Source: Enterobacter phage Ec_L1. Taken from it: 51,894 nucleotides of DNA. Positions 1-51,843 of this stretch are shown piece by piece (the first letter of the stretch is position 1; each line of letters opens with the position of its first letter). The stretch lies in sequence record NC_042122.1; one strand, given 5' to 3'. The position numbers and the translations under genes were made by a program. The notes under the pieces are model-generated. The model saw only the letters and a program-made list of their open reading frames with translations. It did not search any database and was not told the DNA's origin.

Positions 1-353
1 CGTTAGAGTCAAAGCGAAGGTCTGGACGGCAATAGGTTGCTCGGAATCCTTGGCACTTATTCCGGACATAGTCGCGATGAATCGCCATAGCTCCTGACAC
101 AGAAATCATACCACGCTTGCGCCATTCGTAAAGTGTGGCGTGCGAGATCTTAATGGCCTTGACAAGTGCAGCGGGTGAGCCGTAGTATTCAATCACTTTT
201 TCAAGGCGGTGAGCTAATCCGGCCTTTACCTCATCTTTCAGAACGTAATAGCCAGTTGGCTTTTTGCGCGCTTTCTTATCAGCGCCGCGTGAAGTCCCGT
301 TGTTACCGTTGAGAGAGCGCTTATCGACAGCGCCGGATTTAGTCAGTTTCGTC
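1..353 (-). CDS. Partial (3'-truncated by window edge) small HTH DNA-binding protein, Cro/CI/XRE-like
   Basis: Minus-strand ORF starting at the ATG at 353-351 with RBS gaggaaaatatc, and open to the window edge. Helix-turn-helix-like segment GSPAALVKAIKISHATLYEWRKRG. Divergent from the helicase promoter at 368. Confidence 0.45.
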
Positions 354-367
354 ATGATATTTTCCTC

Positions 368-2484: not shown

Positions 2485-2902
2485 TAAAGGCGATTACCTG
2501 GAATATTACGAACGCGATCCAAGCGACACGCGAAAGGAGGAGGCGCACCAGAACGAAAGCGCCTCTTGGGTAAAACTTCACTACCCTGAGATCATATTCT
2601 GGCACACGGTCAACGAGGGCAAGAAAACAATCACCCAGGCAGACCGAGATCAGAGAGCCGGATTATTGAAAGGGGTGAGCGATAACGTATTCCTGAATGG
2701 TGTTTGCTACAAATTCCCGTTTGGAGCTATAGAGTTGAAGCGCGTCAATAAGAGCGGGAAAGGAAAGGCCTCACCAGTCAGCGCAGATCAGAAGGAATAC
2801 TTACGGCGCGTCAGGGAAAGGGGAGGTTTCGCCGCCGTCGCTTACGGATCTGAACAATTCAAACTGGCTTTCCTTGATATGATAGGAGAACAGCACGAAT
2901 AG
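2435..2902 (+). CDS. VRR-NUC (PD-(D/E)xK) nuclease domain protein
   Basis: VRR-NUC-like motifs WHTVNEG, GVSDNVFL and AIELKRVNKSGK...SADQKEYL. No internal ATG; probably a GTG or TTG start overlapping the helicase 3' end. Start is uncertain. Confidence 0.5.
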   Translation: MRTSLAEKILEGKLITDKGDYLEYYERDPSDTRKEEAHQNESASWVKLHYPEIIFWHTVNEGKKTITQADRDQRAGLLKGVSDNVFLNGVCYKFPFGAIELKRVNKSGKGKASPVSADQKEYLRRVRERGGFAAVAYGSEQFKLAFLDMIGEQHE

Positions 2903-2933
2903 CTAAAACAGGTGCAATGGAATGCGCTATTAT
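2889..2933 (+). promoter_or_regulatory. early promoter cassette P2 (degenerate element AACAGCACGAATAGCTAAAAC + TATTAT)
   Basis: Element, an 18-nt spacer containing hairpin GTGCA/TGCGC, then a -10. The dam gene follows. Confidence 0.55.
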
Positions 2934-2960
2934 CATCCCATCTTAAACAGGAGATTGATT

Positions 2961-3919: not shown

Positions 3920-4161
3920 TGGATATTCGCGAGGGTAGGGCGGCAGTATGGGAGCACGCAAAAGAGTGCGGGATTGATGAAGATATAGCACGAATTGCTA
4001 AACACTTCGACATCAAAGAGATTAATATCTTTACTCCTGGCGACGGCGGAAAACTCACATATTTAAACGAGCGCCCTCGCAAATTCCACAAGATAGCGGT
4101 TGCAGCTAAACCAGAAAAAACGCTTGACCAATATCTCAAAGAGGCAAGAGGCAAAAAATGA
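3919..4161 (+). CDS. hypothetical protein
   Basis: ATG at 3919 overlaps the upstream TAA, suggesting translational coupling. 80 aa. Confidence 0.4.
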   Translation: MDIREGRAAVWEHAKECGIDEDIARIAKHFDIKEINIFTPGDGGKLTYLNERPRKFHKIAVAAKPEKTLDQYLKEARGKK

Positions 4162-6191: not shown

Positions 6192-6773
6192 ATGATTATT
6201 ATTCTGAACGCACCAGCCGGAGCCGGAAAAGATACCATTCAGCAAGCAATTGCGGATCTGCATGAGGTTTCACAACTGAGCTTCAAAAAACCAATGTTTG
6301 CTATGGCTAAGGCCATGCTTGGCGATATGGGGTTTGCTGAATTTATGGATGCTTACAATAACCGCGAGCGAAAAGAAAAGCCTCTTGATCTGCTTCACGG
6401 CTCAAGCCCTCGTCAGTTCATGATCTGGTTAAGTGAGAGCGTTATTAAACCGCACTTTGGAGACCAGCATTTTGGGAATCTGCTTTATGACGATTACATA
6501 ATGCACGAGAATGACGGCTACTATGTCGGAGTTGTCAGTGATGGCGGGTTTGAGAGCGAGACCATAGCCTTGATCGAAACTGGCGTTCCGGTTCGCCTGG
6601 TTCGACTACATCGTGACGGCTACACGTTTGCCGGAGACTCTCGCGATTATGTCAACCTGCCGCTCTACGCCAATAGTCCAACGTATGACTACCAGGAGTT
6701 TGACGTGCAGCTAACTGAAGGTTTACCAGTTGTGGCGGCGCTGGATATTCTTTCAATTGTCGGGTTGAAATAG
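6192..6773 (+). CDS. P-loop kinase (dNMP kinase / polynucleotide kinase-like)
   Basis: Walker A NAPAGAGKDT at the N-terminus, resembling phage dNMP kinases. Confidence 0.55.
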   Translation: MIIILNAPAGAGKDTIQQAIADLHEVSQLSFKKPMFAMAKAMLGDMGFAEFMDAYNNRERKEKPLDLLHGSSPRQFMIWLSESVIKPHFGDQHFGNLLYDDYIMHENDGYYVGVVSDGGFESETIALIETGVPVRLVRLHRDGYTFAGDSRDYVNLPLYANSPTYDYQEFDVQLTEGLPVVAALDILSIVGLK

Positions 6774-6813
6774 CACGAATTGCTAAAACTGGCGCAACGG
6801 AATGCGCTATTAT
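6769..6813 (+). promoter_or_regulatory. early promoter cassette P3 (AATAGCACGAATTGCTAAAAC + TATTAT)
   Basis: 18-nt spacer with hairpin GCGCA-acggaa-TGCGC. Leader caacgaaacgaaac. Confidence 0.6.
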
Positions 6814-6852
6814 CTTTTCAACGAAACGAAACACCCAAACAGGAGATACACC

Positions 6853-8637: not shown

Positions 8638-8666
8638 GGATAGCACCTCTCGTTTCGATGGAGCCA

Positions 8667-8710
8667 ATATAACAAAACCCGCCGAAGCGGGTTTGACAAA
8701 AAGTGCTATT
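8667..8710 (-). promoter_or_regulatory. early promoter cassette P13 (minus strand) with embedded terminator hairpin
   Basis: AATAGCACTTTTTGTCAAAC, then CCCGCTTCGGCGGG-TTTT, then TGtTATATT. Confidence 0.55.
8678..8695 (-). terminator. terminator hairpin CCCGCTTCGGCGGG + TTTT (inside P13 spacer)
   Basis: UUCG tetraloop hairpin plus a T-run on the minus strand. Confidence 0.55.
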
Positions 8711-11331: not shown

Positions 11332-11368
11332 TTTGAGATCCTCTTGTTGTCTCGTTTCGATGGGGCTA

Positions 11369-11412
11369 ATGTAACAAAACCCGCCGAAGCGGGTTTAACA
11401 AAAAGTGCTATT
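11369..11412 (-). promoter_or_regulatory. early promoter cassette P14 (minus strand) with embedded terminator hairpin
   Basis: Roughly 60-bp near-repeat of the P13 module. Confidence 0.55.
11380..11397 (-). terminator. terminator hairpin CCCGCTTCGGCGGG + TTTT (inside P14 spacer)
   Basis: Identical to the hairpin at 8678. Confidence 0.55.
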
Positions 11413-12890: not shown

Positions 12891-12922
12891 CTCATTACCT
12901 TACTGTTTTGTTGGATTGAGTA

Positions 12923-12969
12923 AAGTTTACCGCCTTACTCTATATTTGTCTTTAGCAATTCGTGCTATT
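12923..12969 (-). promoter_or_regulatory. early promoter cassette P15 (minus strand; -10 assignment uncertain)
   Basis: AATAGCACGAATTGCTAAAGAC abuts the upstream stop; the downstream -10 is poorly defined. Confidence 0.4.
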
Positions 12970-14073: not shown

Positions 14074-14117
14074 TGGAAAGGCGGCGCGGAACATCCGCCT
14101 TTAATGTTTTTGACCAT

Positions 14118-14378
14118 TCAGGCGAAACGTCTTGCTTTCTTCACTCCTTTAAACCGGATGCCGGAGCAAAGCAACTCAGGCCTTACCGATGCGTTGAACC
14201 ATCGACCGGAATGAACCTGGCGAATGTACTCCTCACAGATCTGATTGTTGGTCTGATTCATTGGGATGTACTCCCACCACTTGCGATAACTATTCCAGCG
14301 ATACACAAGAGGCTGGCTATCGCTACAGAAGAAAGTCCCTTGAGTTCCTTCGAAGATAACACCGTCAACGCGATTCAT
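14118..14378 (-). CDS. hypothetical protein
   Basis: 86 aa, Trp-rich. Confidence 0.45.
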   Translation of the reverse strand: MNRVDGVIFEGTQGTFFCSDSQPLVYRWNSYRKWWEYIPMNQTNNQICEEYIRQVHSGRWFNASVRPELLCSGIRFKGVKKARRFA

Positions 14379-15358: not shown

Positions 15359-15386
15359 GAGATGTCTCCTTGTTTCGATGGGGTAA

Positions 15387-15430
15387 TGATAGCGCATCAC
15401 CCCGAACGCGTTTTAACAAAAAGTGCTATT
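15387..15430 (-). promoter_or_regulatory. early promoter cassette P17 (minus strand)
   Basis: AATAGCACTTTTTGTTAAAAC, 17 nt, TATCAT. Hairpin GGGGT..ACCCC around the -10. Confidence 0.5.
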
Positions 15431-15671
15431 GAACCGGATCACCATCAAGCAACTCAGTTACAGCGTCAACGATGCAATGAGCTTGGGTTTGAGGCTTAAA
15501 ACCAGCCTTGACGATACGCCATTTCTTACCGCCGCAATGCTCAACCTTTAACTGCTTATCGCCACGCTTAACGCGGAAGTATTTGCGTTCAAGCATACCC
15601 TCCGTGAATGTAGCCCCAACAACTACGCCATTGTCAGTGGCAAAATCGATCGCGCCTTGAATAGTTACCAT
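15426..15671 (-). CDS. hypothetical protein
   Basis: RBS ggaggcgcatc; first gene after P18. Confidence 0.5.
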   Translation of the reverse strand: MVTIQGAIDFATDNGVVVGATFTEGMLERKYFRVKRGDKQLKVEHCGGKKWRIVKAGFKPQTQAHCIVDAVTELLDGDPVQ

Positions 15672-15698
15672 GATGCGCCTCCTATGTTCCGATGAGAT

Positions 15699-15744
15699 GA
15701 TTATGCACCATTCGAGCCTGATTGGTTTAGCAAAAAGTGCTATT
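15699..15744 (-). promoter_or_regulatory. early promoter cassette P18 (minus strand; leftward promoter of divergent control region)
   Basis: AATAGCACTTTTTGCTAAAC, 19 nt, TGcATAATC. Confidence 0.55.
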
Positions 15745-15929
15745 TCTCGCAGAGTGTCAAAATGACTATATTGTTGCTGTATTGTTCATGATCTCATAAC
15801 ACTGTTGCTCATATAGCAATAGTGATTGTTGCTGTGATTGCAAAAGTCGACTCTCATTATTGCCTGATATGCATTAAGTTGAGAGGGGTAGAGATGGTGT
15901 TTCGCTGTTCGCCTGGTGCTCGTGGAAAT

Positions 15930-16465
15930 TTCTGTGGAGGATTTGGGGAAAGTTACGGAGGATTTTTCGGACTCAATGCAGCGAACCATTCAGAGATAAC
16001 GCTCATCGTTTCCCCTCCCTGGTGTGCGTGATGTGCTGCGGAGGGTTGCGGAGGATTACGGAGGATTTGCAATTCGGCTCTAGCCCTTGGTGCGTCTGGT
16101 CTGCGAGAGATTTACGCCGGATAATGTCGATTTTTGTGCTGGGGCTGGTATATGTATACATAGAGAAATGATGTGAAAGTGATGTGCTCATACACGTAGA
16201 GAAAAAATGCAATAGTCCAATAATCCGCATAATCCTCCGTAAACTATGAAGAGAGAGACATATACCAATAGAGTAATATAGTAATAATATATATAAAAAC
16301 CCTTATATTACATATATATATAGTATTATTATATACTATTGTATATGAGTTGCTTGGTCATAAAATGAGCTGATTTTACGGAGGATGGTTCCGGCGCAAT
16401 CCTCCGCGATTTAACTAAGTACATGATTTACAAGGCCGCATTTACGGAGGATTTTTTCCGCAAAA
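15930..16465. repeat. iteron cluster A: about 9 copies of (A/G)CGGAGG(A/G)TT in both orientations, flanking a roughly 90-bp AT-rich core (16258-16350); candidate replication origin
   Basis: Tandem block gcggagggttgcggaggattacggaggatt at 16038-16067. Inverted pair at 16381-16412. AT-rich tract with polypurine/polypyrimidine runs. No credible coding capacity. Confidence 0.6.
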
Positions 16466-16483
16466 ACACGTAAAACCGCCCAA

Positions 16484-16528
16484 AATAGCACTTTTTGCTA
16501 AAACAGCACCCCTGGCTTTTGGTATTAT
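16484..16528 (+). promoter_or_regulatory. early promoter cassette P4 (AATAGCACTTTTTGCTAAAAC + TGgTATTAT)
   Basis: Rightward promoter of the divergent control region. Confidence 0.6.
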
Positions 16529-16564
16529 TATCTCAACGAAACGAAAGGCACAAAGGAAAACGTC

Positions 16565-16843: not shown

Positions 16844-16886
16844 TAGCACGAATTGCTAAACATGAGCCGGAGCAATCCGGCATAAT
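16842..16886 (+). promoter_or_regulatory. early promoter cassette P5
   Basis: Element, hairpin GCCGGA-GCAA-TCCGGC, then CATAAT. Confidence 0.6.
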
Positions 16887-16916
16887 GCACCCATACCAAC
16901 CAGTGAGGAAAGAGAA

Positions 16917-17246
16917 ATGGCATACCAGGACAAAAGAATCGAGATCGTAGAGAAGGCTGAGGAAATTCACAATCAGGTGCGACTTGCCAGAAAGATGGGT
17001 GTCAGCAACAAGGATATTATCCTTGGCATCGTTGAACAGCACAGCCCTATCAACGTTCGATACGTCGCTTTCATGGTTGAGACTGGACTGTTCGCCTTGC
17101 ACGGATATGGTCATCAATTCTTTAACTACATCAGCGATAAAAAGATGGCATACCAGGCCGCTAACCCTGTCGGGGTGAGCCGATCCGGTTTCATCGTTGA
17201 CCACGAGGATTTCACGCGATTCATCCTGGATAGCACGAATTGCTAA
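16917..17246 (+). CDS. hypothetical protein
   Basis: 109 aa; its 3' end runs through the next promoter element, with the stop TAA being the CTAAAAC of the motif. Confidence 0.5.
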   Translation: MAYQDKRIEIVEKAEEIHNQVRLARKMGVSNKDIILGIVEQHSPINVRYVAFMVETGLFALHGYGHQFFNYISDKKMAYQAANPVGVSRSGFIVDHEDFTRFILDSTNC

Positions 17247-17273
17247 AACTCCTGATCGGGGCTATGCCATAAT
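17229..17273 (+). promoter_or_regulatory. early promoter cassette P6
   Basis: Element, 18 nt, then TGcCATAAT inside hairpin GGGGCT/AGCCCC. Confidence 0.6.
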
Positions 17274-17304
17274 AGCCCCACTGAAACGAAACGAGGATTA
17301 AATC

Positions 17305-17499
17305 ATGATTCAGATCAACCAGACAACAAGCACCCTGGAGGCTATCTCCGCACTCCGCAAACTGGCTGACATGCTGGAAAGCAAGAGCGCATTTCTCTTA
17401 AGCGGAGAGGTCAACGACAGGCGCAACTATTGCGAAGGTCGCACAATCAGCATCGACATCTCAGTATTCACCGATTCAGATGAGGAGATTTGCATATGA
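17305..17499 (+). CDS. hypothetical protein
   Basis: 64-aa ORF. Confidence 0.45.
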   Translation: MIQINQTTSTLEAISALRKLADMLESKSAFLLSGEVNDRRNYCEGRTISIDISVFTDSDEEICI

Positions 17500-17687
17500 T
17501 TAGCGCTGAGGCCTGGGTGTTCCGAGCGGGGTTCTATGCAAAAATCGGATTTGATTTCTACATCTGGCACCCAATCAAGAAGATTTGGATCAGAATCTAC
17601 TGGCTTTGTGGCAACACTTACGAAAGGGCGCGTTGCAATCGCAAGTTAATGAAGGTCAAGATCCTGCTAGAAAAGATCCGACTATAG
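17496..17687 (+). CDS. hypothetical protein
   Basis: ATGA overlap with the upstream gene; the stop TAG is the TAG of the next promoter motif. Confidence 0.4.
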   Translation: MISAEAWVFRAGFYAKIGFDFYIWHPIKKIWIRIYWLCGNTYERARCNRKLMKVKILLEKIRL

Positions 17688-17727
17688 CACTTTTTGCTAA
17701 ACGCCGCCCGACGCAATCGGGCATAAT
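17683..17727 (+). promoter_or_regulatory. early promoter cassette P7 (TTTTT-centre variant)
   Basis: Element, hairpin GCCCGA-cgcaa-TCGGGC, then CATAAT. Confidence 0.6.
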
Positions 17728-17757
17728 GCAGTTACACCAAACAAACGGAGCAATACC

Positions 17758-18051
17758 ATGAAAAAGAAAACCAACCTCGTTCGCGTTCGTCTACTCACTG
17801 ACGGATATTTCCGTGACAGCGACAATCTGAAAGTATGGCTCAAGCCTCGCACCTTCCCTGTTATCGTCAACGCTGAGATTGTGAAGTCTGAAAGCGGGTT
17901 GCCAGTTTTCGCAAAAGTGCCAATGTCCGAATGCGTTGCTATCGGCATGAATCCGGCAATCTTTGGTAACGGCCTGGAAGGGTGCGGATTGTCCTGGGCG
18001 CTGCATGAGGTTGATGACCTGTGCGGCAACCCTGAAGCTGAGATCCTGTAA
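17758..18051 (+). CDS. hypothetical protein
   Basis: 97 aa; RBS ggagcaatacc. Confidence 0.5.
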   Translation: MKKKTNLVRVRLLTDGYFRDSDNLKVWLKPRTFPVIVNAEIVKSESGLPVFAKVPMSECVAIGMNPAIFGNGLEGCGLSWALHEVDDLCGNPEAEIL

Positions 18052-18278
18052 TGGCACGCCGTCAAGTAACCTGCACGTGTGGAGCGTATAGTTTCCCGCA
18101 TCGGTTCGGTGGCGGCAAGTGTGACGGCCTGGTCATCGTGATAGCGGCGGCGGGGTCATCCCACTGCCACTATTGCCATTTGAATAATAACGGCTGTGAA
18201 GTGATTAAGGGTCAGGAGCATCCGCGAGAGTGTCCGGCTGTTGTTGACTTCTGCGAATATAACGAGGTGAAACTATGA
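18051..18278 (+). CDS. Cys-rich small protein (putative Zn-binding)
   Basis: 11 Cys in 75 aa. Confidence 0.45.
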   Translation: MARRQVTCTCGAYSFPHRFGGGKCDGLVIVIAAAGSSHCHYCHLNNNGCEVIKGQEHPRECPAVVDFCEYNEVKL

Positions 18279-18475
18279 AAACCTTCGAAACCAAAGAGTA
18301 CCATGACGAGGACGGCGACGGCTTAACTGTTGACTGCCACGACACGCACGTCGAGATCATGACCTGGAGCACTACGGGGTGCGGTGTATTCTCCGATCCG
18401 AAAGTGTTGCGTGAAATTGCCGCTCAACTGGTACGCGGCGCGGAAGAACTGGAGCGAATCAATGAAAAAGGTTGA
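18275..18475 (+). CDS. hypothetical acidic protein
   Basis: 66 aa, ATGA overlap. Confidence 0.4.
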   Translation: MKTFETKEYHDEDGDGLTVDCHDTHVEIMTWSTTGCGVFSDPKVLREIAAQLVRGAEELERINEKG

Positions 18476-18728
18476 CAAGGGATTATCCTTATTTGCTGCC
18501 TTGGCTATCGTGGCTGCTGTAATCGGCGGGGCTACAGTGTCCGAGGGATATCGCATTCACAAGCTGGTGAACAGCGTCGATGATGAAGGAAAAGTTATCT
18601 GTGCTCTGACTGGTAACGAGCGAACGCGAAACACTACGGTTATTGTAGGAAAGCTGATTCTACCTGAAACTGTCGAGGAGCAAGAATATTATTGCGCCCC
18701 AGGTAAATTCTACTGGGTTGCGAAATAG
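18462..18728 (+). CDS. membrane-anchored small protein (N-terminal signal-anchor)
   Basis: ATG at 18462. N-terminal hydrophobic segment LSLFAALAIVAAVIGGATV. Confidence 0.45.
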   Translation: MKKVDKGLSLFAALAIVAAVIGGATVSEGYRIHKLVNSVDDEGKVICALTGNERTRNTTVIVGKLILPETVEEQEYYCAPGKFYWVAK

Positions 18729-18768
18729 CACGAATTGCTAAACCTTCCGCAAGGCCATTTGCTAAAGT
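18724..18768 (+). promoter_or_regulatory. early promoter cassette P8
   Basis: Element, 19 nt, then TGcTAAAGT inside hairpin GGCCA/TGGCC. Confidence 0.55.
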
Positions 18769-18809
18769 GGCCTTATTGAAGCAACAGCAACCAATCAGAG
18801 GAAATTAGC

Positions 18810-19124
18810 ATGCAAGTATTCGTTAAGCTCGTCGATACGTATTACATGGCCGCGCAAGGTATGGATGGTGTAATCGTCAAAGGTGAAACCTTAAGCTCGC
18901 ATCCGGATTACGCGGCAAAGCCTGGAGATTCAGTTTTCGTGGACATCCGTGACATGCGACCGTTCATGCGTCCTGAACATCATCATCTGTGTGACGAATG
19001 GCTTGATAAGCCCATGCGTTACCTTTACACCATCCCAGGGGTGTACGACACAAGAGCGACGTGTGATGTTGTAGATAACCCGTTCGCGCACTGGAACACA
19101 CTCAAGAGCGGCGAACTCCACTAA
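18810..19124 (+). CDS. hypothetical protein
   Basis: 104-aa ORF. Confidence 0.5.
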   Translation: MQVFVKLVDTYYMAAQGMDGVIVKGETLSSHPDYAAKPGDSVFVDIRDMRPFMRPEHHHLCDEWLDKPMRYLYTIPGVYDTRATCDVVDNPFAHWNTLKSGELH

Positions 19125-19182
19125 GACGATAAACCACCAGGGGAGAATTTACTCCCCTCACAAAGCGATAGAGGGCGTTTAA

Positions 19183-19500
19183 ATGGCATCAAAAATCAAC
19201 GTAAATCCTAAGCACCACGATTTGAAGATTGCTCCCGAGCATTTCCGCAACGTGTGCCTGGGGCTGAAAACGGCGGAGTACCGTCGCAATGACCGCAACT
19301 TTGAGCAGTTTGATATTATCCGATTGCGCGAGTATGACAACGGGCATACGGGTAATGAGGTTTCCGCTGTGATCTCTCACGTCCTGGATCTGGATGAGTT
19401 TCACAAGCTAAGCGGTGATGAGTTCCAGATCGGCTATGTGGTTCTGTCAATCCAGTTAATCAACGGGAGCCGGAAATGCGCCACTACAGAATTGCAGTAA
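19183..19500 (+). CDS. ASCH-like / DUF3850-like protein
   Basis: HDLKIAPEHF...LKTAEYRRNDRNFEQFDIIRLREY matches the ASCH/DUF3850 fold pattern from memory; weak. Confidence 0.4.
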   Translation: MASKINVNPKHHDLKIAPEHFRNVCLGLKTAEYRRNDRNFEQFDIIRLREYDNGHTGNEVSAVISHVLDLDEFHKLSGDEFQIGYVVLSIQLINGSRKCATTELQ

Positions 19501-19691
19501 TCGAAACCACAACGGCGTTTGGCGATCCGGTAAAGCGATACGCCATTCAGTTGCGCGTTGCGTTCTTCTGGTGGGTGACGGTAGAGATTTGCGGCTCACT
19601 ATTCCAGGCTCGCTACTGGCTGAACGAGAGCAAGGCTCCCATTCGAAAAGAGCGAATCATCAAGGTCATTGAGAATAGCACGAAAAGCTAA
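19476..19691 (+). CDS. hypothetical protein
   Basis: Overlaps the upstream gene; ORF runs into the next promoter motif. Confidence 0.35.
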   Translation: MRHYRIAVIETTTAFGDPVKRYAIQLRVAFFWWVTVEICGSLFQARYWLNESKAPIRKERIIKVIENSTKS

Positions 19692-19718
19692 AACATCCAG
19701 GCGTGGTATTGCTATAGT
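19674..19718 (+). promoter_or_regulatory. early promoter cassette P9 (CGAAAAGCTA variant)
   Basis: Element, 18 nt, TGcTATAGT, followed by the palindrome GTGAGATCAC. Confidence 0.55.
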
Positions 19719-19747
19719 GAGATCACACCAAACGAGAGGATTCGAAC

Positions 19748-19978
19748 ATGATCGTAAAGAATAAGTTAGGCGACTACCACGTCAGCGACAAAACCGTAGA
19801 GCATGGTTTTGGCTGGGGCGGCGGTATCTACTTTCGCACCAAATCAGGAAAGTGGAAGTTTAACGGCATTGGTCAGCCAGTAGCCAACGCTCAAGAGGTC
19901 GACAAGAACGACATCAACCAGGAAACTAAACTCCCATGGGGCTTAGATCCAGAAACTTACCAGAAGGTGGAATCATGA
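19748..19978 (+). CDS. hypothetical protein
   Basis: 76 aa; RBS gagaggattcgaac. Confidence 0.45.
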   Translation: MIVKNKLGDYHVSDKTVEHGFGWGGGIYFRTKSGKWKFNGIGQPVANAQEVDKNDINQETKLPWGLDPETYQKVES

Positions 19979-20292
19979 AACTGTTATGTGTCAACTCACC
20001 AGTGAAAGGCCTCATCAAAGAGGGTAAGGCTTACGACATCGCTAACGAAAGCAGCGCGGCGACAACCAAAGTCATCTTTGACGAATTCGGCGTCCCGCTC
20101 TACCTGAATCCGGTCCCTGGCTCTGCTGGCCTGTATCAATCACGACTCGGTAACGGCGTGTTCCTGTTCCGCATGGTTGACAGCAGCTTCGAAAAGCACC
20201 AGAAGAAGCTACGCAACGAGCGCCGGATTGAGCTTGCGATCCTGTTCGCTGGCGCAATCCTGGTAACGGCTTACATGTTAATGCAGGGGTAA
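19974..20292 (+). CDS. hypothetical protein with C-terminal TM helix
   Basis: ATGA overlap; C-terminal IELAILFAGAILVTAYMLM. Confidence 0.45.
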
Positions 20293-20295
20293 ACG

Positions 20296-20586
20296 GTGGA
20301 CGGCGAAAACATGCGCTTTTACCCTTCCACGGCTGGAGGGGTTAAAACTCACTACATGCACGACTTGCCGCCAGGCATGACGATGAAACGTATTCGCGAG
20401 GTTGGCAAGGAGTACGCAAAGAACGCGGGGCTACAGTTCAAAGCCAAGAAGATCAGAGGCCGCAACCTCCTGGTCATTCGGATGAGCTTCGTCCCCTGGT
20501 TGATGGATGACTTCTCTTTTGCAGATGGGGTTAAGGGTTGTCAGTGTGACGCGTGCGAGCGCTGGTATAAAGAATCCGGCAAATAG
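20296..20586 (+). CDS. hypothetical protein
   Basis: Start is ambiguous (GTG at 20296 or ATG at 20311). C-terminal CQCDAC. Confidence 0.4.
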   Translation: MDGENMRFYPSTAGGVKTHYMHDLPPGMTMKRIREVGKEYAKNAGLQFKAKKIRGRNLLVIRMSFVPWLMDDFSFADGVKGCQCDACERWYKESGK

Positions 20587-20626
20587 CACGAATTGCTAAA
20601 ACGGGATGCTCGCTGACTGGTATATT
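20582..20626 (+). promoter_or_regulatory. early promoter cassette P10
   Basis: Element, 18 nt, then TGgTATATT inside hairpin GGGATG/CATCCC. Confidence 0.6.
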
Positions 20627-20658
20627 GTGTTCATCCCAACACGAAAGAGAAATTCAAA

Positions 20659-20907
20659 ATGATGAGACATGCTGAAGTATTACATATGGTGACTAAATCT
20701 ATCGCTGACGACAGCCAGGTCATTATTAACTTCAACCAAACCATGTCAAAGGGTATCGCGTGTATAACCATCGAAAGCGATATCGTGGCTGGACTTACAG
20801 CAAAGATAATCGCAACAGGAACCCACTGGGACGGCGAGCCAATTACGCCGGAAAAGGCATGTGAGTATATTTACATGCATTCATCAGCCATTACGGAGAT
20901 TATTTAA
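20659..20907 (+). CDS. hypothetical protein
   Basis: 82-aa ORF. Confidence 0.45.
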   Translation: MMRHAEVLHMVTKSIADDSQVIINFNQTMSKGIACITIESDIVAGLTAKIIATGTHWDGEPITPEKACEYIYMHSSAITEII

Positions 20908-20908
20908 C

Positions 20909-21421
20909 ATGAAAGAAAAATACATGCGCGCAACATCCGTTTCATTCGTCGCACCATACACGATGAACGGATTCACGGCTGGCAAGCGCTACTTCTCTAA
21001 CGAGGGCGCGTATATCTGGCAGCGAGAAAACGGAGACGTTTACGGAATTAGCCGGACTGGTGTTACTGACGATGACGGTCAAGATCGCGTTGTCTGCCTG
21101 GTTGAGACAAGCATTTTCAACGGTGAAACGCTCGTTGCTCGAATCGAACACGAGTATGACGAAAACGCCGTAATCCGTAAGCGCAACCGCTATCGCCACA
21201 TGGTCATTAACGCCTTTGCTATGTATGCCCGTCGCTGGTGGAACATGAGCAAGAAACAGGCTCGTGCCTGGGGTCGCATGCATGCGGAGCCGTTCTTCTA
21301 CAATGATGGTTCTCTCGTTGAGGACACGATCGTAAGCGACTATGTCGACTCGGCTAAGTTGTGGGAAGTGGATCAAGAGCTTTTCAACGATGCTGTTTAC
21401 GAAGAAATGTCATGCTGGTAA
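20909..21421 (+). CDS. hypothetical protein
   Basis: ATG at 20909 overlaps the upstream stop (taacATG). 170 aa. Confidence 0.5.
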   Translation: MKEKYMRATSVSFVAPYTMNGFTAGKRYFSNEGAYIWQRENGDVYGISRTGVTDDDGQDRVVCLVETSIFNGETLVARIEHEYDENAVIRKRNRYRHMVINAFAMYARRWWNMSKKQARAWGRMHAEPFFYNDGSLVEDTIVSDYVDSAKLWEVDQELFNDAVYEEMSCW

Positions 21422-21465
21422 ATAGCACGAATTGCTAATCTTGCGCGAGGTCATTTTGCTATAGT
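21421..21465 (+). promoter_or_regulatory. early promoter cassette P11
   Basis: Element, 19 nt, then TGcTATAGT inside hairpin GGTCA/TGACC. Near-duplicate of the P8 cassette and leader. Confidence 0.55.
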
Positions 21466-21505
21466 GACCTCATTAAAGCAAAGCAACCAATCAGAGGAAA
21501 CACCC

Positions 21506-22234
21506 ATGAAATTATCACTCAAAGCACTCGCAACCAACCGAATCAACGGATCTGTAACGGCGTTCAAAACCTACCCAGTCTTAAATGACGTGCTGGCAAA
21601 CCTGACGGATTCGGGGTATTGGTTCATCAACGATAACGGTGAAAAGCAGTTCGCATATAAGTTTGCAGTTAAAGACGGATTCAGCGATCCGAAAAAACAA
21701 TACAGCTTTGAGCTTGCGCTACAGGTTGACACCTTGCAAGAAACGATCAACTCAGATGTAAAGGCAGCAATCACAAATGCATGTCGTTCCGGTGGTCACA
21801 TTTACGATAAATTCCGTAGCGGGATGTACTCACTTGGCGGTCACTTTGGAGGACTGGCGACAACCCACAAGTCAATCGTTGGGTCTGAAAAAGATTCATT
21901 CAATGTCTGTGACGCGGATGGAAACGTGAGAGTTCAGATCGGTAAGATTAAACCCGCTCAGAGCGTTAAAGAGGATGAGCGTGACGCGGCGGTTGTCGAA
22001 CTCGACAAGCACCTCCCAGCATACCGCCGATCTGATAAAGGTTTCAACCTGGTAGATAGCATCGCGTGGCTCGGAAAACTGAACACGGCTCACGCGTCGG
22101 ATTGCCAGAAATATGAGGGAATTCTTGAGGATTTGATGGAGGCGTTCGATATTCGAACCATTGACGGACTCAAGCATTTCGCCTCTAACCTGAAACGCTC
22201 CGCAGACATCATCGATACAGTTCGCAAGAAATAG
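21506..22234 (+). CDS. hypothetical protein
   Basis: ATG at 21506 with RBS cagaggaaacaccc. The listed upstream extension would overlap the promoter. Confidence 0.5.
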   Translation: MKLSLKALATNRINGSVTAFKTYPVLNDVLANLTDSGYWFINDNGEKQFAYKFAVKDGFSDPKKQYSFELALQVDTLQETINSDVKAAITNACRSGGHIYDKFRSGMYSLGGHFGGLATTHKSIVGSEKDSFNVCDADGNVRVQIGKIKPAQSVKEDERDAAVVELDKHLPAYRRSDKGFNLVDSIAWLGKLNTAHASDCQKYEGILEDLMEAFDIRTIDGLKHFASNLKRSADIIDTVRKK

Positions 22235-22274
22235 CACGAAAAGCTAAAACAATGCCGGAGCAATCCGGCATAAT
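22230..22274 (+). promoter_or_regulatory. early promoter cassette P12
   Basis: Element, hairpin GCCGGA-GCAA-TCCGGC, then CATAAT. Same hairpin as P5. Confidence 0.6.
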
Positions 22275-22304
22275 GAACTCATCGAAACAAACGGAGCTAT
22301 AGAG

Positions 22305-33127: not shown

Positions 33128-33531
33128 TGCACTTTGAACTATATGAGGCAAGCGCCGAGTTTGTTGCGTCAATCATCCAGGACAGTGACAACCTTGTCGC
33201 CTGGGAGAACATCGCTTTCACTCCTCCGGCTGATGGATCTGAGTATTACCGATTCAACTACAAGGAGGCCGACACGGTTACAACTTCACTTGATCGCAAG
33301 TGCGCCTATTTTGTCGGAATGGTTCAGGTAGATGTTGTGTTTTCGCCTGGCTCCGGCATTAGTGTAGCAAGAAAATTAGCGGCTGATGTTGCAAAAAGTG
33401 CTATCGATGGTACAATGCTTTCGACAGGTTATATTTTATCTCGTGGGGCGGTTCATCCCGCCCAGAAATCAGACACGGGCTGGTTTATTCCGGTTCGGTT
33501 CTATGTTCGATGTGAAACAAAAGGAGCATAA
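33127..33531 (+). CDS. tail completion / terminator-like protein
   Basis: 134 aa. Contains an internal extended -10 promoter for the next gene. Confidence 0.4.
   Translation: MHFELYEASAEFVASIIQDSDNLVAWENIAFTPPADGSEYYRFNYKEADTVTTSLDRKCAYFVGMVQVDVVFSPGSGISVARKLAADVAKSAIDGTMLSTGYILSRGAVHPAQKSDTGWFIPVRFYVRCETKGA
33388..33416 (+). promoter_or_regulatory. intragenic extended -10 promoter TGgTACAAT (upstream of major tail gene), preceded by GCAAAAAGTGCTAT half-element
   Basis: Same TGGTACAAT nonamer as the tail-fibre promoter at 45453. Lies inside CDS 33127-33531. Confidence 0.45.
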
Positions 33532-34597: not shown

Positions 34598-34920
34598 AAC
34601 GGGCTATTTTCTTACTTCATCAAAAGCCACCAACAGATGCGGAGCTTGAGGCGGCAGGCTTCACCCGCGCTGATTATGAGGATGACGAGGACAATCTTGA
34701 GGAGGTCATTTTCTCTGAGGAAATGGCTCAATCTTGGGAGTTGTTCTCAGCTATGTCAACCCAGTGGAGATACGCTCCAAGCGGGGTTATCACTGGTCTT
34801 GATTATAATGTCTTTCCAATGCTGGCAAAACTCTATAAAATAGAGGACGAGGAAATAGCCTTTGAAGATATACGCGTCCTTGAGCGTGCAACGCTTGAGA
34901 TAGCACAACAAAGCAAATAG
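34270..34920 (+). CDS. tail assembly chaperone GT-like fusion produced by programmed -1 frameshift near 34588-34594
   Basis: The -1 frame is open from 34594 to 34920 and is continuous with the G reading frame after slippage on gtA AAA AAC. This is the classic lambda G/GT arrangement. Confidence 0.55.
34588..34594 (+). other. programmed -1 ribosomal frameshift slippery heptamer A_AAA_AAC (G/GT)
   Basis: The zero-frame stops 1 codon downstream; the -1 frame is open for 109 further codons. Confidence 0.55.
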
Positions 34921-34958
34921 CGCTCCTCGTGGGCGCTTTTTTTATACCTGGAGGTTTT

Positions 34959-40485: not shown

Positions 40486-43400
40486 ATGGCTAAAATCATT
40501 TCAGCCCGTAAGGGTGGCGGCAGCAAGCCGCATCAACCTCGCGAGATGGATGACAACCTAATCTCACGCGACAAAATCAAGATCTTACTTGCTCTCTCTG
40601 ACGGCGAAGTTGACGAGGAGTTTTCCCTCAAAGATTTGCTGTTCGACGACGTTCCGGTTGTCGGGGCTGACGGCACAGTAAACTACCCAAACGTGAGCGC
40701 TGAGTTTCGAAGCGGAACTCAGACTCAATCGTACATCCCAGGGTTTACTGAGTCCAACAATGAGGTGACGGTACAGCGTGACGTTTCGACGGAAACACCT
40801 TACGTTATCAGCGTAACCAATCAGGTTCTTAGCGCCATTCGAATCCGAATGATGACGGATCGAATTGCTCACACCAAGGATAACGGAGACACCGTAGGCT
40901 GGAATGTTGAATACCGTTTTGACATGGCTGTGAATGGCGGCGCTTATGAGGAAGTAACTCGCACGGTCTTTGAGGGTAAGAACACGAGCGGATACGATCG
41001 CTCAATTCGAATCAACTTGCCAGAGTCTTACCAGCAGGTTCTGATCCGAGTGGTGCGACTGACTCCGGATGACAACAGCGACAGGACTCAAAGCAAGTTC
41101 AGGGTTCAGAGTTACAGTGAGGTCATTGACGCCAAGTTTCGATATCCTCTAACCGCGTTGCTTTTCGTTGAGTTTGATTCCGACTTGTTCCCGAATCAGT
41201 TGCCGACAATATCGGTCAAGAAGAAATGGAAAAAGATTCAAGTTCCGGTTAACTATGATCCGGTAGCTCGAACTTACTCCGGCTCCTGGAATGGCATGTT
41301 TAAAACGGCGTGGTCGAATAACCCCGCGTGGGTTCTGTATGACCTGATCATGAATCAGCGCTATGGACTTGATCAGAAGGAGTTAGGCATTGACGTAGAT
41401 AAGTGGAGCCTCTACGAGGTTGCTCAATACTGCGATCAGATGGTTCCAGACGGACACGGCGGTCAAGAACCGCGTTACTTGTGTGACATGGTTGTTCAGT
41501 CGCAAGTTGAGGCTTACAGGCTCATTCGTGATGTGTGCTCAATCTTCCGTGGTATGTCGTTCTACAACGGCGAAAGCCTGTCAATCGTCATCGACAAGCC
41601 TCGCGATCCGGTTTATCTGTTCACGAATGACAACGTTGTAGATGGTGCTTTTGCTCGCGTGTTTGCGTCAGAGAAAAGCATGTACACGAGTGTTAACGTG
41701 ATGTTTGATGACCGTGAGAACATGTATAACCAGGACGTAGAGCCTGTGTTTGACAACGAGGCATCTCGTAGATTCGGTAACAACCCGACAGACATCACAG
41801 CGATCGGATGCACTCGACGTAGTGAGGCTAACCGCCGTGGGCGCTGGATTATCAAGACGAACCTCAGAAGCACCACGGTTAACTTTGCGACTGGTCTTGA
41901 GGGTATGATTCCGATGATTGGCGACGTGATCGCGGTGTCGGATAACCACTGGCAACACAACATCATGTATAACCTTTCCGGTCGATTGATGGAAGTTTCA
42001 GGGGTTCAGGTGTTCACGTCATTCCGAGTTGACGCAAGACCAGGTGACTTCATTATCGTTAACAGGCCTGACGGCAAACCGCAGAAGCGAACAATTTCTC
42101 GCGTTTCCTCTGACGGTAAAACGATAACACTGAACGTAGGTTTCGGGTTCTCTGTTCAGCCTGACGCTGTTTTCGCAATTGAACGATCAGACCTGACGTT
42201 TGAGCAGTATGTTGTTACCAAGATCGAGAAGGGCGACGGCGATGAGGAGTTTGTTCACCGCATCACGGCGATTGAATACGATCCAACCAAATATGACGCC
42301 ATTGACTATGGTGTTGTGATTGACCAGCGACCAACGAGCATTGTTGATCCTGACCACCTCAAAGCGCCGGAGAACGTTAAGATCTCATCTTTCTCTCGCG
42401 TGGTTCAGGGGATGAGCGTTGAAACGATGGTTGTTAACTGGGACAAGGTTCAGTATGCGAATCGCTATGAAATGCAGTGGCGAAAGGATAGCGGGAACTG
42501 GAACAACACCCCACAGACGGCGGCGACAGAGATTGACGTCGAGGGCATTTACTCCGGAGTTTACGAGGTAAGGGTTCGGGCAGTGTCGGCAGCGGGTAAC
42601 GTTTCCCCATGGTCAGAGATTGAGGTTAAATCCCTGACTGGTAAAACTGGCAAGCCTAACAAGCCTATCAACCTCACTGCTACTGATGACGAAGTGTTCG
42701 GGATTCGCGTTAAATGGGGTATGCCTGACGGATCAGGTGATACAGCATACATTGAGTTGCAGCAGGCTCCGGATGATAATGCAGGTGGATATTTGCCGGA
42801 GGCGGCGACACTGGTTAGCATGGTTCCCTACCCACAACATGAATACTGGCACAGCGTTTTACCAAGTGGTTTCATTAACTGGTATCGCGTAAGGGCTGTT
42901 GACAAGATCGGTAACGTGTCGGACTGGACTGATTTTGTAAGGGGTATGGCTACGGATGACGTGGACAAGATTGGAGAGGTTGTCAAGATTGAGTTTGAAG
43001 AGACGGAAGGATTCAAGGAGTTGAAAAAAACCGTTGACGAGTTAATCGGTCAGCTTGACGAGCAAAGCGAGGAACTCAAAGAGACTGGCGACACCATGAA
43101 GGATTACGGTTCTAAGCTCAGGGCACAAGCCGAGGCTGATATTGAGAACGCACTAGCGAACAATACAGACGTTATCCGGATGACCAAGGAGAACGGGAAG
43201 AGAAAAGCAGAGTTCAGATTCGCCGTTAATCTGGTTGCTACAGAGAGTGAAGCGAGAGCCGAGGCTATCTCTAAACTTTCAGCGCAGTTTGACGAGGAAA
43301 TTGGGGCGGCTGTAACCAGAATGGATCAGGCAATCGCGGCGGAGGGTGAGGCGCGAGCGAAAGCAATTGCTGACCTTAAGGCTCAGATCGACGACGATGT

Positions 43401-45452: not shown

Positions 45453-45484
45453 TGGTACAATAGCGTTTAGCAAAATGTGCTATT
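45453..45484 (+). promoter_or_regulatory. extended -10 promoter TGgTACAAT for tail fibre gene plus reverse-oriented element copy in leader
   Basis: Follows terminator 45420-45440. GTTTAGCAAAATGTGCTATT lies between the -10 and the RBS. Confidence 0.5.
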
Positions 45485-47961: not shown

Positions 47962-47990
47962 AAGAAAGCCCCCATATGGGGGCTTTTTTA
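47962..47990. terminator. bidirectional terminator AGCCCCCATATGGGGGCT flanked by A5/T5 (tail fibre + / ssb - convergence)
   Basis: Palindromic 18-mer with A-run and T-run flanks. Confidence 0.7.
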
Positions 47991-48425
47991 TTAGAACGGG
48001 ATATCGTCGTCGAAATCCATTGGTGGGTTGTTTTGAGGCTTAGGCTTGCTTTGCTGCTGTCGCTGTTGCTGGTTTCCTTGTGGCTGTTGTGGCTCGCCCC
48101 AGCCGCCGCTCTGCTGTTGTGATCGCTGACTGAAGATCAGTTGGGCGAATCCGGCTGGCTGCAACGTTACATACGTCGTGCCATTGTGATCTCGGATATT
48201 TGTTTTTAACTGATCGCATTGAACCGTAATCACCTTCCCAACCTGGAACGCGTCGCGATACCAGTTTAGTAGGCCGTCAGTCTTTGCGTTGAAAAAGAAC
48301 GTGTAGTTCGTATACTCTCGCGTACCTTCACGGTTCTTGTAAGACTCGCTCAACTCAACGATGAACGTTGTTTCGTTGTGGATGCGAGGCTCTTTCCGGA
48401 TCTCGCCAGTAATGATATGTGGCAT
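47991..48425 (-). CDS. ssb: single-stranded DNA-binding protein
   Basis: OB-fold N-terminus, Gln/Gly-rich linker and a C-terminal acidic tail ending DFDDDIPF. Confidence 0.9.
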   Translation of the reverse strand: MPHIITGEIRKEPRIHNETTFIVELSESYKNREGTREYTNYTFFFNAKTDGLLNWYRDAFQVGKVITVQCDQLKTNIRDHNGTTYVTLQPAGFAQLIFSQRSQQQSGGWGEPQQPQGNQQQRQQQSKPKPQNNPPMDFDDDIPF

Positions 48426-48469
48426 GATTAACTCCTGATTGGTTGGCGGCTTTCGCCGCCTATTTTGAT

Positions 48470-49141
48470 TTAATCGAAGCTCTCAATATTTTGAGGCTCA
48501 GGTTGTTTTTTGGTTTCAGGTTCGGATTTTACCGCATCCTTTGACTTGCTTACAACTTTCTTTTGAACAGCAGCAAAACCTCCATTAGTGCCAACAGTCA
48601 ATGAGGCTTTACGCTTCTCATAATGCTCCTGAATAATAGGCTTATCGACTGGGCTTGAAGCGCCCCATGCCTTTTTGAACTGCTCTGCGAGTTCTTCCAT
48701 ATTTTCACATTTGTCAAGTCGCTTATTCCAGTCCTTGGCGCTCATTACGGCAACCTGTGCGTCATCGTCTGCCTGAGACAAACCAAGAGCAGAAACAAGA
48801 CCGTATCGACGGGCATAAGTGAAAGCCGATCCCATACCTTGAGGGTCAGCCTTTACTACAGGGAGCACCGTTAGGTATGAAATGAACTGTCCTGAAACAT
48901 GCCGGATTGTGGTAATAACGCGAATTTCTTTGCTGTTACTCTCCTCCGTCATCGACTGCTCAATCATGAGCATCTCACTTTCAAGAGGTGGCGTAACGGT
49001 ATCAAGGACGCTGTCGAGGGTCGCATACTTACCCTTGCCAGCACCTCCGTTAATCTTGTCTTTCAGAACCTTAACGAATTTCTGACGCGCCCTGAATATG
49101 GCTGGGAATAACTCGCTGGTCATGTTTGATTGCATTTTCAT
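48470..49141 (-). CDS. ssDNA-annealing recombinase (Erf/Rad52-like SSAP)
   Basis: 223 aa. Conserved-looking FTYARRYGLVSALGL block. Positioned between the exonuclease and SSB genes. Confidence 0.55.
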   Translation of the reverse strand: MKMQSNMTSELFPAIFRARQKFVKVLKDKINGGAGKGKYATLDSVLDTVTPPLESEMLMIEQSMTEESNSKEIRVITTIRHVSGQFISYLTVLPVVKADPQGMGSAFTYARRYGLVSALGLSQADDDAQVAVMSAKDWNKRLDKCENMEELAEQFKKAWGASSPVDKPIIQEHYEKRKASLTVGTNGGFAAVQKKVVSKSKDAVKSEPETKKQPEPQNIESFD

Positions 49142-51760: not shown

Positions 51761-51797
51761 CACTTTTATATTCTCCAAAATAGAAACGGGCGCGATC

Positions 51798-51843
51798 ATA
51801 ATAACCGCGCCCGCTTGGGATTGCTTAGCTTTTTGTGCTTATT
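51798..51843 (-). promoter_or_regulatory. degenerate early promoter cassette P20 (minus strand; primase)
   Basis: AATAAGCACAAAAAGCTAAGC, about 19 nt, TTATTAT, enclosed in hairpin GGGCGCG/CGCGCCC. Confidence 0.4.

Follow-up and report, generated by a model that had tools for sequence, protein, structure and literature searches.

The repeat and its genomic setting

The genome of Enterobacter phage Ec_L1 (sequence record NC_042122.1) carries, between its early genes, a series of short cassettes in which a known direct repeat (DR) is followed at a fixed distance by a putative -10 hexamer and, in most cases, by a hairpin whose sequence differs from one cassette to the next. The stretch analyzed, hereafter the window, is 51,894 nt long and represents the complete, circularly permuted 51.9-kb genome of this T1-like siphovirus (Drexlerviridae). 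In the phage collection searched, only Enterobacter phage Phc (Eclunavirus) is closely related; it is ~85-90% identical to the window over two thirds of the early half, and the two records are permuted such that window position 1 corresponds to position 31945 of the Phc record. Early-side genes recognized by Pfam include those for a helicase, Dam, a primase and an exonuclease. The structural (late) half, window 24000-48000, has no repeat cassettes, and its genes are separated by ordinary terminators (e.g. at ~34905-34935); the cassettes thus accompany only the early, replication and lysis genes.

The element that defines the cassettes is a 16-mer, TAGCACGAATTGCTAA, with 16 matches at three or fewer mismatches in the whole window versus 0.42 expected. 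It corresponds to the 21-nt direct repeat aaATAGCACnnnTTGnTAAAA of T1-like phages, reported for TLS, T1, Rtp and Rogue1 (PMC11447400). The window repeat matches the TLS repeat in orientation, distance to the start codon and the A/T/G sub-types of its central bases, being intergenic, aligned with the direction of transcription and located ~76 nt ahead of the start codon. The TLS paper leaves the function of the repeat as an open question, naming a stoperator, an enhancer site or an UP element, and mentions three intragenic copies (PMC11447400). It covers the repeat alone, reporting neither a -10 at a fixed distance nor a hairpin, and does not link adjacent terminators to the repeat. Odd repeat-like copies also occur in the window at 3986-4002 (+), 33387-33403 (-) and 45467-45482 (-); one is inside an open reading frame (ORF), as it is in Phc, the other two belong to the late/tail region, and none has a convincing -10, Shine-Dalgarno (SD) sequence or hairpin. 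Although the arms of the repeat are palindromic, no compensatory change was found among 40 variants; a role as an RNA or DNA helix was therefore rejected, and the repeat is regarded as a sequence element and not as part of a structure.

A relaxed scan identified 20-22 cassettes in the window and 128 non-redundant cassettes over eight Drexlerviridae genomes from four genera (the window, Phc, T1, SA32RD, cp17, KLPN2, TH21 and TH30). Searches of viral contigs with a degenerate repeat pattern returned mostly chance single matches, and whole phage genomes were used instead. Full-text literature searches for the repeat sequence and for Drexlerviridae transcription-start data returned nothing relevant, the SU57 paper makes no mention of cassettes, and Rfam gave 0 matches at the gathering threshold over the whole window.

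Anatomy of the cassettes

A TAnnnT hexamer (TATTAT, CATAAT, TATAGT etc.) lies 20-21 nt 3' of the repeat in 17 of 18 window copies, a position found without filtering on the hexamer, and an SD sequence and ATG follow 25-40 nt beyond it. An information profile anchored on the hexamer places the repeat at about -52..-31; after it come 13 positions that are essentially unconserved, a G at -14 that is conserved (TG-extended -10), the -10, five to six weakly conserved positions, and C-1/A+1. The T residues at the first and third positions of the hexamer and the G of the TG motif are conserved even though they were not imposed. At the positions occupied by hairpin arms (-18..-6 and +6..+10), information content is ~0. 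A 22-bp gap separates the TTG(C/T)TA within the repeat from the -10, which places it 5 bp upstream of where a -35 box would have to lie, and the canonical -35 position is occupied by AAAAc; the cassettes lack a consensus TTGACA box 16-18 bp ahead of the -10, and a consensus promoter scan misses them. From this arrangement, we infer that the repeat and -10 form a promoter with an upstream element.

In all eight cassettes of the 16844-22274 range, the stop codon of the upstream gene is in the repeat or within 3 nt of it. The repeat itself provides the stop codon of the upstream gene in two frames (TAG of aTAGCAC and TAA of GCTAAA), as seen at 16844, 17231, 17685, 18726, 19676, 20584, 21423, 22232 and 6771, so that the cassette closes whatever gene is newly inserted ahead of it. 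From the predicted +1, the leader is conserved, unstructured and A/C-rich (CATCGAAACGAG and variants, ACACCAAACGAG), with one leader subfamily reading TTATTGAAGC...AACCAATCAGAGGA. It is common to cassettes of all eight genomes and lies ~7-20 nt past each -10, e.g. at 15379-15366 (-), 17280-17295 and 11361-11348 (-); it could be a translation enhancer or a processing site.

Hairpins were divided into two classes. Class A accounts for 30 of the 89 significant hairpins; here the spacer between repeat and -10 contains both arms, the 3' arm ends on the first -10 bases, and C(UNCG)G or GNRA tetraloops are frequent. In class B, which comprises 59 of the 89, pairing is between the spacer and the -10-to-+1 segment, placing the -10 in the loop or inner stem. 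The cassettes of the 16844-22274 range, all on the (+) strand, are as follows, with minimum free energy (MFE) in kcal/mol.

16844..16893 (+): DR 16844-16860; -10 CATAAT 16881-16886; predicted start ~16893; class A hairpin GCCGGA-GCAA-TCCGGC at 16866-16881 with a GNRA loop, its last C being the first -10 base; MFE -11.9, z -3.4 (antisense z -0.9)
17231..17280 (+): DR 17231-17247; -10 CATAAT 17268-17273; predicted start ~17280; class B hairpin GGGGCTAT...ATAGCCCC at 17258-17279, 8 bp, -10 partly in the stem and partly in the loop; MFE -15.4, z -4.05
17685..17734 (+): DR 17685-17701; -10 CATAAT 17722-17727; predicted start ~17734; class A hairpin GCCCGA-CGCAA-TCGGGC at 17706-17722; MFE -10.7, z -1.6; the Phc orthologue differs in the loop only
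18726..18775 (+): DR 18726-18742; -10 TAAAGT 18763-18768; predicted start ~18775; class B hairpin AAGGCCATTT...AAGTGGCCTT at 18751-18774, 10 pairs including G·U; MFE -14.2 (antisense -9.8); member of covarying subfamily A2
19676..19726 (+): DR 19676-19692; -10 TATAGT 19713-19718; weak class B helix at 19703-19726; MFE -5.7, z 0.07; the orthologous helix in Phc is intact (10 pairs, -12.1 kcal/mol)
20584..20636 (+): DR 20584-20600; -10 TATATT 20621-20626; long-range class B hairpin GGGATG...CATCCC at 20604-20636; 39-nt MFE -12.6, p 0.024; Phc orthologue MFE -11.6
21423..21472 (+): DR 21423-21439; -10 TATAGT 21460-21465; predicted start ~21472; class B hairpin GAGGTCA...TGACCTC at 21447-21471; MFE -12.9, z -3.6; paralogue of 18726 with compensatory C-G to U-A changes
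22232..22281 (+): DR 22232-22248; -10 CATAAT 22269-22274; predicted start ~22281; class A hairpin ATGCCGGA-GCAA-TCCGGCAT at 22252-22271, 8 bp; MFE -14.1, z -4.9; Phc orthologue ATGCCGCC-GAAA-GGCGGTAT, with two pairs replaced and the loop still GNRA

Hairpin formation beyond chance

The 39 nt from the end of the repeat to 12 nt past the -10 were folded for 18 window cassettes. Their summed MFE was -171.8 kcal/mol versus -101.8 +/- 8.7 in dinucleotide-preserving shuffles (Z -8.0), and the summed longest perfect stem was 98 versus 74.7 +/- 3.4 (Z +6.8). Random 36-nt stretches of the same genome had a mean z of -0.13, with 5.6% below -2. Over the 128 cassettes of the eight genomes, the summed MFE was -1342 versus -677 +/- 24 in shuffles (Z -27.5) and 62% had z < -2, while 44 representatives sharing <60% identity had a mean z of -2.25 (p 3e-9).

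The initial annotation of the window had described a stem-loop in the spacer of most cassettes, and the hairpins that it listed are present at its coordinates or no more than 1 nt off. These include GCGCA/TGCGC at 6792-6807, GGCCA/TGGCC at 18753-18772, GCCGGA-GCAA-TCCGGC at 22254-22269 and the helix at 51788-51812, with GGGGCT/AGCCCC at 17258-17279 (given as 17257-17279) and the first hairpin of the range at 16866-16881 (given as 16865-16880). Its description of a spacer of 18-19 nt has to be corrected, as the variable stretch is 20 nt long after a 17-mer repeat. Its wording that this spacer "almost always" forms a hairpin was too strong, a clear hairpin being found in 12-14 of ~20 genuine window cassettes. 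A hairpin does involve the spacer but is not confined to it: in the 18 window cassettes, the 21-nt spacer by itself is only weakly significant (Z -2.2), the -10 being overlapped or enclosed by most helices, which stop at the predicted start site. Counted from the first -10 base, 3' ends of helices are most frequent at 0..+3 and at +11, and the class B peak lies one base ahead of the predicted start. Stems are G+C-rich with 5-13 pairs, loops range from 3 to >13 nt, and helix positions vary. The arms fall exactly on the cassette's two stretches that hold no sequence information.

Selection on base pairing

The initial annotation had also argued from compensatory changes that structure, and not sequence, is conserved. 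Scoring column-pair complementarity over the anchored alignment of all 128 cassettes gave no significant covariation (best z 3.7 of 780 pairs), nor was the best pair significant among the 44 representatives (z 2.7), since the helices do not share one register, which makes an R-scape-type test of the whole set the wrong tool. For the same reason, 22 mixed class B cassettes in an ungapped alignment yielded no consensus structure in RNAalifold. Single-linkage clustering of cassette cores was tried for event counting and discarded, 100 cassettes being lumped into one family because the -10 and leader are shared.

Covariation is evident where homologous cassettes are compared. In the 13-member subfamily A2, which includes window cassettes 18726 and 21423, all 117 of 117 cells of 9 pairs are paired, double-sided changes occur in 5 of the 9 pairs, and one pair is represented by CG, UG, GC, UA and AU. 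The covariation score of A2 (0.493 versus 0.169 +/- 0.034) was matched by 0 of 500 shuffles, and slid controls were 40-53% paired. Orthologous cassettes tell the same story. For 44 orthologue pairs, which were defined solely by the 46 nt that follow the core, differences were found at 37 of 641 stem sites versus 73 of 679 unpaired sites (Fisher p 0.0013). Four double changes keep pairing and none breaks it; single changes kept the pair in 12 cases and broke it in 19, with 10 of these 19 coming from two orthologue pairs in which the whole core has been exchanged for another hairpin-bearing sequence. Between the window and Phc, the helix at 2911-2928 changes from GGUGCA/UGCGC(U) to ACCGGA/UCCGG(U), and that at 22252-22271 from AUGCCGGA-GCAA-UCCGGCAU to AUGCCGCC-GAAA-GGCGGUAU. 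Pairing is thus under selection within homologous subsets of cassettes, and the claim of covariation holds for these and not for the family aligned as a whole. A C as the first -10 base tends to close the helix (10 of 18 versus 23 of 108, p 0.007), which suggests that stem stability is bought at a cost to the -10.

Strand specificity and dependence on the upstream gene

The sense strand folds more stably than the antisense strand in 101 of 127 cassettes (versus 26; p 2e-14) and in 33 of the 44 representatives (versus 10; p 2e-5). This bias is not compositional, as shuffles differ by +0.18 kcal/mol. G·U pairs are in excess on the sense strand (141 versus 67). When helices were sought by scoring Watson-Crick pairs only, and thus strand-symmetrically, internal single mismatches were G·T in 54 cases and A·C in 7; outside the extended -10 and the -10, they were G·T in 19 and A·C in 6, where composition favours A·C by 1.7:1. 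Among class A hairpins with 4-nt loops, 10 GNRA and 4 UNCG loops were found in the sense orientation (14 of 18) versus 0 of 18 in antisense, with ~5% expected by chance.

The hairpin also depends on what lies upstream. We classed 125 cassettes by the presence of an upstream ORF, meaning a co-directional open frame of at least 50 codons that ends at the repeat. The 96 cassettes with such an ORF have a mean z of -2.97 and a mean MFE of -12.0, with z < -2 in 74%, versus a mean z of -1.1, an MFE of -5.5 and z < -2 in 24% for the 29 cassettes without (p 4e-6 and 1e-9). Fold stability, mismatches, tetraloops and upstream-ORF dependence all point to a sense-strand RNA and not to a DNA cruciform. A structure intrinsic to the promoter (a cruciform, an N4-like hairpin or an operator) is not expected to produce this combination of strand asymmetry and upstream-gene dependence. 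The role that the initial annotation had put forward as a weak attenuator or 3'-end stabilizer of the upstream RNA gains support from the G·U pairs, from the GNRA/UNCG loops seen only in the sense orientation and from hairpins that are strong only behind a co-directional ORF.

Likeness to terminators

The remaining cassettes of the window include the most terminator-like hairpins and the divergent first promoters, and are as follows.

2891..2940 (+): DR 2891-2907 (CAGCACGAATAGCTAAA); -10 TATTAT 2928-2933; class A hairpin at 2911-2928 with two G·U pairs; the stem of the Phc orthologue has two G-C/C-G swaps
6771..6820 (+): DR 6771-6787; -10 TATTAT 6808-6813; z -4.2; class A hairpin at 6790-6809 followed by TTATCTTTTC, terminator-like and flagged by a terminator scan
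8659..8708 (-): DR 8692-8708; -10 TATATT 8666-8671; class A hairpin at 8678-8691, a canonical intrinsic terminator by sequence (CCCGC-TTCG-GCGGG + TTTTGT) that runs into the -10
11361..11410 (-): DR 11394-11410; -10 TACATT 11368-11373; class A terminator CCCGC-TTCG-GCGGG-TTTTGT at 11380-11393, identical to that at 8678-8691
12917..12967 (-): DR 12951-12967; -10 TAAACT 12924-12929; z -4.0; class B hairpin GAGTAAGG...CTTTACTC at 12918-12940; Phc orthologue with compensatory A-U to G-C
15379..15428 (-): DR 15412-15428; -10 TATCAT 15386-15391; class B hairpin GGGGTGATG...CATTACCCC at 15380-15403; MFE -14.2, z -2.5
15693..16535: divergent pair of first cassettes, 15742(-) with DR 15726-15742 and 16486(+) with DR 16486-16502; repeat and -10 present, no significant hairpin (z +0.34 and +0.67) and no co-directional ORF upstream
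51788..51840 (-), upstream of the primase gene: DR 51824-51840; -10 TATTAT 51798-51803; class B hairpin GGGCGCGG...CGCGCCC at 51788-51812 followed by GTTTCTATTTT, a true terminator by its sequence that encloses the -10; MFE -17.8 in the 36-nt region and -22 to -24 in wider regions

Textbook class A terminators, AAA-CCCGC-UUCG-GCGGG-UUUUGU-UAUAUU, are found at 8708(-) and 11410(-), and the helices at 6790-6809 and 51788-51812 are canonical U-tract cases, being followed by UUAUCUUUUC and GUUUCUAUUUU, respectively. Taking a U-tract as ~5 or more U in 8 nt, class A tails have a mean of 4.3 T in 8 nt and class B tails 1.5. Eleven rho-independent terminator features in the SA32RD GenBank record coincide with cassettes, and the T1 GenBank record has one such terminator at 41978-42000. 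In TLS, terminator T62 lies directly after DR12 and T57 after DR10 (Table S1 of PMC11447400). The SA32RD, T1 and TLS sources link these hairpins neither to the repeat nor to a promoter.

The TAAAA at the 3' end of the repeat provides an A-tract ahead of class A hairpins, so that on the opposite strand the hairpin is followed by TGTTTTAGC. A simple scan calls antisense terminators at 8675-8694, 11377-11396, 22252-22271 and 16866-16881, so transcription may be stopped in both directions at some cassettes. In cassette 14071(-), the promoter itself contains no hairpin. A terminator-like hairpin, AAAGGCGG...CCGCCTTT, is found instead at 14076-14101 (-), within the 47 nt that separate the repeat from the stop codon of the upstream gene (14118-14120), where the hairpin's job seems to be done upstream of the repeat.

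Two other RNA signals were considered and rejected. RNase III needs roughly two helical turns, and helices of 5-13 bp would be too short to be its sites. A nut/boxB-like antitermination site, with GNRA-like loops following a boxA-like TGCTAAA, was set aside given that loop sequences and sizes vary and the unit recurs ~20 times.

Apparent gene shuffling at the cassettes

Cassettes make up 6.3% of the early region and contain 8 of the 22 points at which homology between the window and Phc breaks off (p 4e-5). One event is a clean indel of a single gene.

15426..15671 (-): 81-codon ORF between cassettes 15742(-) and 15428(-), absent from Phc

Where the window has two cassettes flanking this ORF, Phc has one chimeric cassette, and the crossover lies in the shared conserved leader. 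Between the conserved cassettes 16844 and 17685, gene content is wholly different, amounting to 790 nt in the window (16894-17684) and 1609 nt in Phc (record 47678-49287), and the replaced module extends from near the start site of the one cassette up to the initial base of the repeat that follows. The neighbouring Phc genes are all annotated as "hypothetical protein". Much as in T4-type phages, the repeated cassettes appear to serve as recombination joints for gene shuffling.

Proposed function and alternatives

We consider it probable that these are composite cassettes combining a promoter with a terminator or attenuator, analogous to the promoter-early stem-loops (PeSLs) of T4-like phages. 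Each cassette is a maximally compact intergenic module, with the upstream stop codon in or at the 21-nt repeat and the repeat, at ~-52 to -31, probably acting as an upstream promoter element. After the repeat come ~13 unconserved nt, the (T)G-extended -10, six unconserved nt, CA(+1), the leader, the SD sequence and the ATG. The two unconserved stretches are selected to pair, the class A spacer with itself and the class B spacer with the -10-to-+1 segment. The helix is predicted to form in the RNA of polymerases that read through from the upstream gene, whereas the cassette's own transcript would begin just 3' of the helix and thereby exclude it. In class A, the U/A-rich extended -10 and -10 may double as the U-tract, yielding an intrinsic terminator or attenuator inside the next promoter. 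Class B, which has no U-tract, probably attenuates more weakly or causes a pause, or else caps the 3' end of the upstream mRNA.

Several points weigh against this interpretation. Promoter activity, start sites and termination are all deduced from sequence. The 59 of 89 significant hairpins in class B have 1.5 T in 8 nt and thus should terminate poorly by E. coli rules, so that the term "terminator" may be wrong for this majority class; several class A tails (AUAAUG...) are poor U-tracts as well. In 37% of cases, the helix runs a few nt beyond the predicted start. The G·U excess comes in part from conserved T-rich bases of the extended -10 and -10, and without these bases it is still significant, albeit with small numbers (19 versus 6). 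The 29 cassettes classed as having no upstream ORF comprise divergent first promoters plus some spurious or intragenic repeat matches. Finally, the cassettes are related by descent, and the p-values given above are therefore optimistic.

The most serious competitor is an RNA element that acts without termination, i.e. a cap that stabilizes the upstream mRNA once 3' exonucleases have trimmed it back to the hairpin. Polymerases would read through the cassette, and the transcript would then be cleaved endonucleolytically in the A/C-rich leader or terminated further downstream. This reading draws on the same strand-specific, upstream-ORF-dependent evidence, is a better fit to class B with its 1.5 T in 8 nt, and finds a conserved, unstructured, A/C-rich leader just 3' of the helix. 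Class A, however, includes textbook terminators with U-tracts, the data hold no sign of processing, and GNRA/UNCG loops are typical of terminators, though equally good for caps. We regard a cap as unlikely overall. A much smaller probability attaches to the inverted repeat acting in DNA, as a cruciform (proposed in the initial annotation) or single-strand hairpin that presents the -10 or positions it relative to the upstream repeat in an N4-like or supercoil-sensing manner. N4 early promoters do use hairpins of 5-7 bp, and helix geometry in the cassettes is tied to promoter landmarks, with 3' ends peaking at the start of the -10 and at -1. A cruciform requires both strands to pair, yet G·T mismatches outnumber A·C by 54 to 7 and antisense folds are weaker in 101 of 127 cassettes. 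Special tetraloops occur in the sense orientation only, and the strand asymmetry favours the sense (non-template) strand, where an N4-type hairpin would need the template strand. Loop size and helix position are far from constant, class A helices are located 5' of the DNA that an open complex melts, and the first promoters of divergent units share the repeat and -10 but have no hairpin, whereas N4-type promoters would each carry one.

It is also very improbable that the hairpins are mainly recombination substrates, the cassette being a module-shuffling hotspot whose structure was selected for that purpose. The concentration of Phc breakpoints in cassettes, the clean one-gene indel between two of them and the PeSL precedent would all suit such a role. 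The indel crossover, however, lies in the conserved leader and not in a hairpin, the hairpins are the least conserved part of the cassette and hence offer poor homology, and neither strand asymmetry nor upstream-ORF dependence is predicted. Least credible of all is that the hairpins are operators for a second dimeric DNA-binding factor, as the initial annotation had suggested, or that they arise by chance from a G+C-rich spacer. Inverted repeats close to a -10 do serve as operators in many cases, and the spacer is relatively G+C-rich. The arms, however, share no sequence and their positions hold ~0 information, which makes an operator unlikely, and arm spacing ranges from 3 to >13 nt; composition is controlled by dinucleotide-preserving shuffles (Z -27.5), and compensatory changes are present.

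An extension of the composite promoter-terminator model is a polymerase relay, in which RNA polymerase that releases the upstream transcript at the hairpin would stay on the next -10/+1 and re-initiate without leaving the DNA. Post-termination retention and re-initiation by E. coli RNA polymerase are documented (PMC11364550). We view a relay as distinctly speculative and improbable. If it did operate, a tandem array of ~10 cassettes would give each small gene its own short mRNA while recycling captured host polymerase, and the 21-nt repeat would be a recapture signal.

Relation to known systems

Cassettes that place a hairpin in a promoter are known from T4-like phages and are not described for T1-like phages. 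PeSLs were reported for RB49/phi1, PST and nt-1 (Arbiol et al. 2010, PMC2839356; Comeau et al. 2014, PMC4122927). In RB49, reporters showed that the stem-loop acts as a terminator or attenuator of upstream transcription, and recombination between PeSLs shuffles ORFans (PMC2839356, PMC4122927). Their features include a TTGACA -35 box 16-18 bp ahead of the -10 with AT-rich sequence upstream, and excised mini-circles detectable by inverse polymerase chain reaction (PMC2839356, PMC4122927).

PeSLs and the T1-type cassettes are alike in populating regions full of small ORFans, in joining a host-type promoter to a stem-loop of variable sequence and position that mostly follows the upstream element and either precedes or overlaps the -10, and in marking the edges of indels and replacements that distinguish related phages. 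For both, the stem-loop is proposed to terminate or attenuate upstream transcription, although for the T1-type cassettes this is read from sequence. They differ in that the T1-type cassettes belong to Drexlerviridae siphoviruses, an unrelated phage family, have the 21-nt repeat and a mostly TG-extended -10 in place of a canonical -35 box, and show no poly-G/poly-C stems that we noted. With the -35 box replaced by the repeat and the phage family unrelated, the cassettes would work like PeSLs without being members of that group.

The hairpins resemble enterobacterial and phage intrinsic terminators in their G+C-rich stems, GNRA/UNCG loops, sense specificity and position just after a co-directional ORF, as well as in the U-rich tail of class A, and several are annotated as such in GenBank records of relatives. 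They are unlike them in that the tail is drawn from the extended -10 and -10 of the next promoter and is often imperfect, and in that class B has no U-tract. Protective stem-loops at mRNA 3' ends (repetitive extragenic palindrome-like elements and trimmed Rho-dependent ends) are likewise stable hairpins without a U-tract just downstream of ORFs. Unlike these elements, the cassette hairpins form no sequence family and are embedded in a promoter.

The fixed distance between repeat and -10 and the strand-specific hairpin turn the published question on the 21-nt repeat into a concrete, testable model. They would carry the PeSL concept beyond T4-like myoviruses into a siphovirus family unrelated to them and suggest that phages have arrived convergently at compact promoter-terminator cassettes as a way to express and shuffle small early genes, a principle already known from T4-like phages. 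Recognition of the cassettes could improve annotation of the hundreds of Drexlerviridae genomes, which are employed in phage therapy, and could supply very compact insulated expression parts.

The ends of the window (1-355 and 51840-51894) cut the homologue of a Phc gene annotated as "putative transcriptional regulator", which is annotated as P22 C2-like in T1 and lies directly upstream of cassette 51840(-). The product of this gene is a candidate reader of the repeat.

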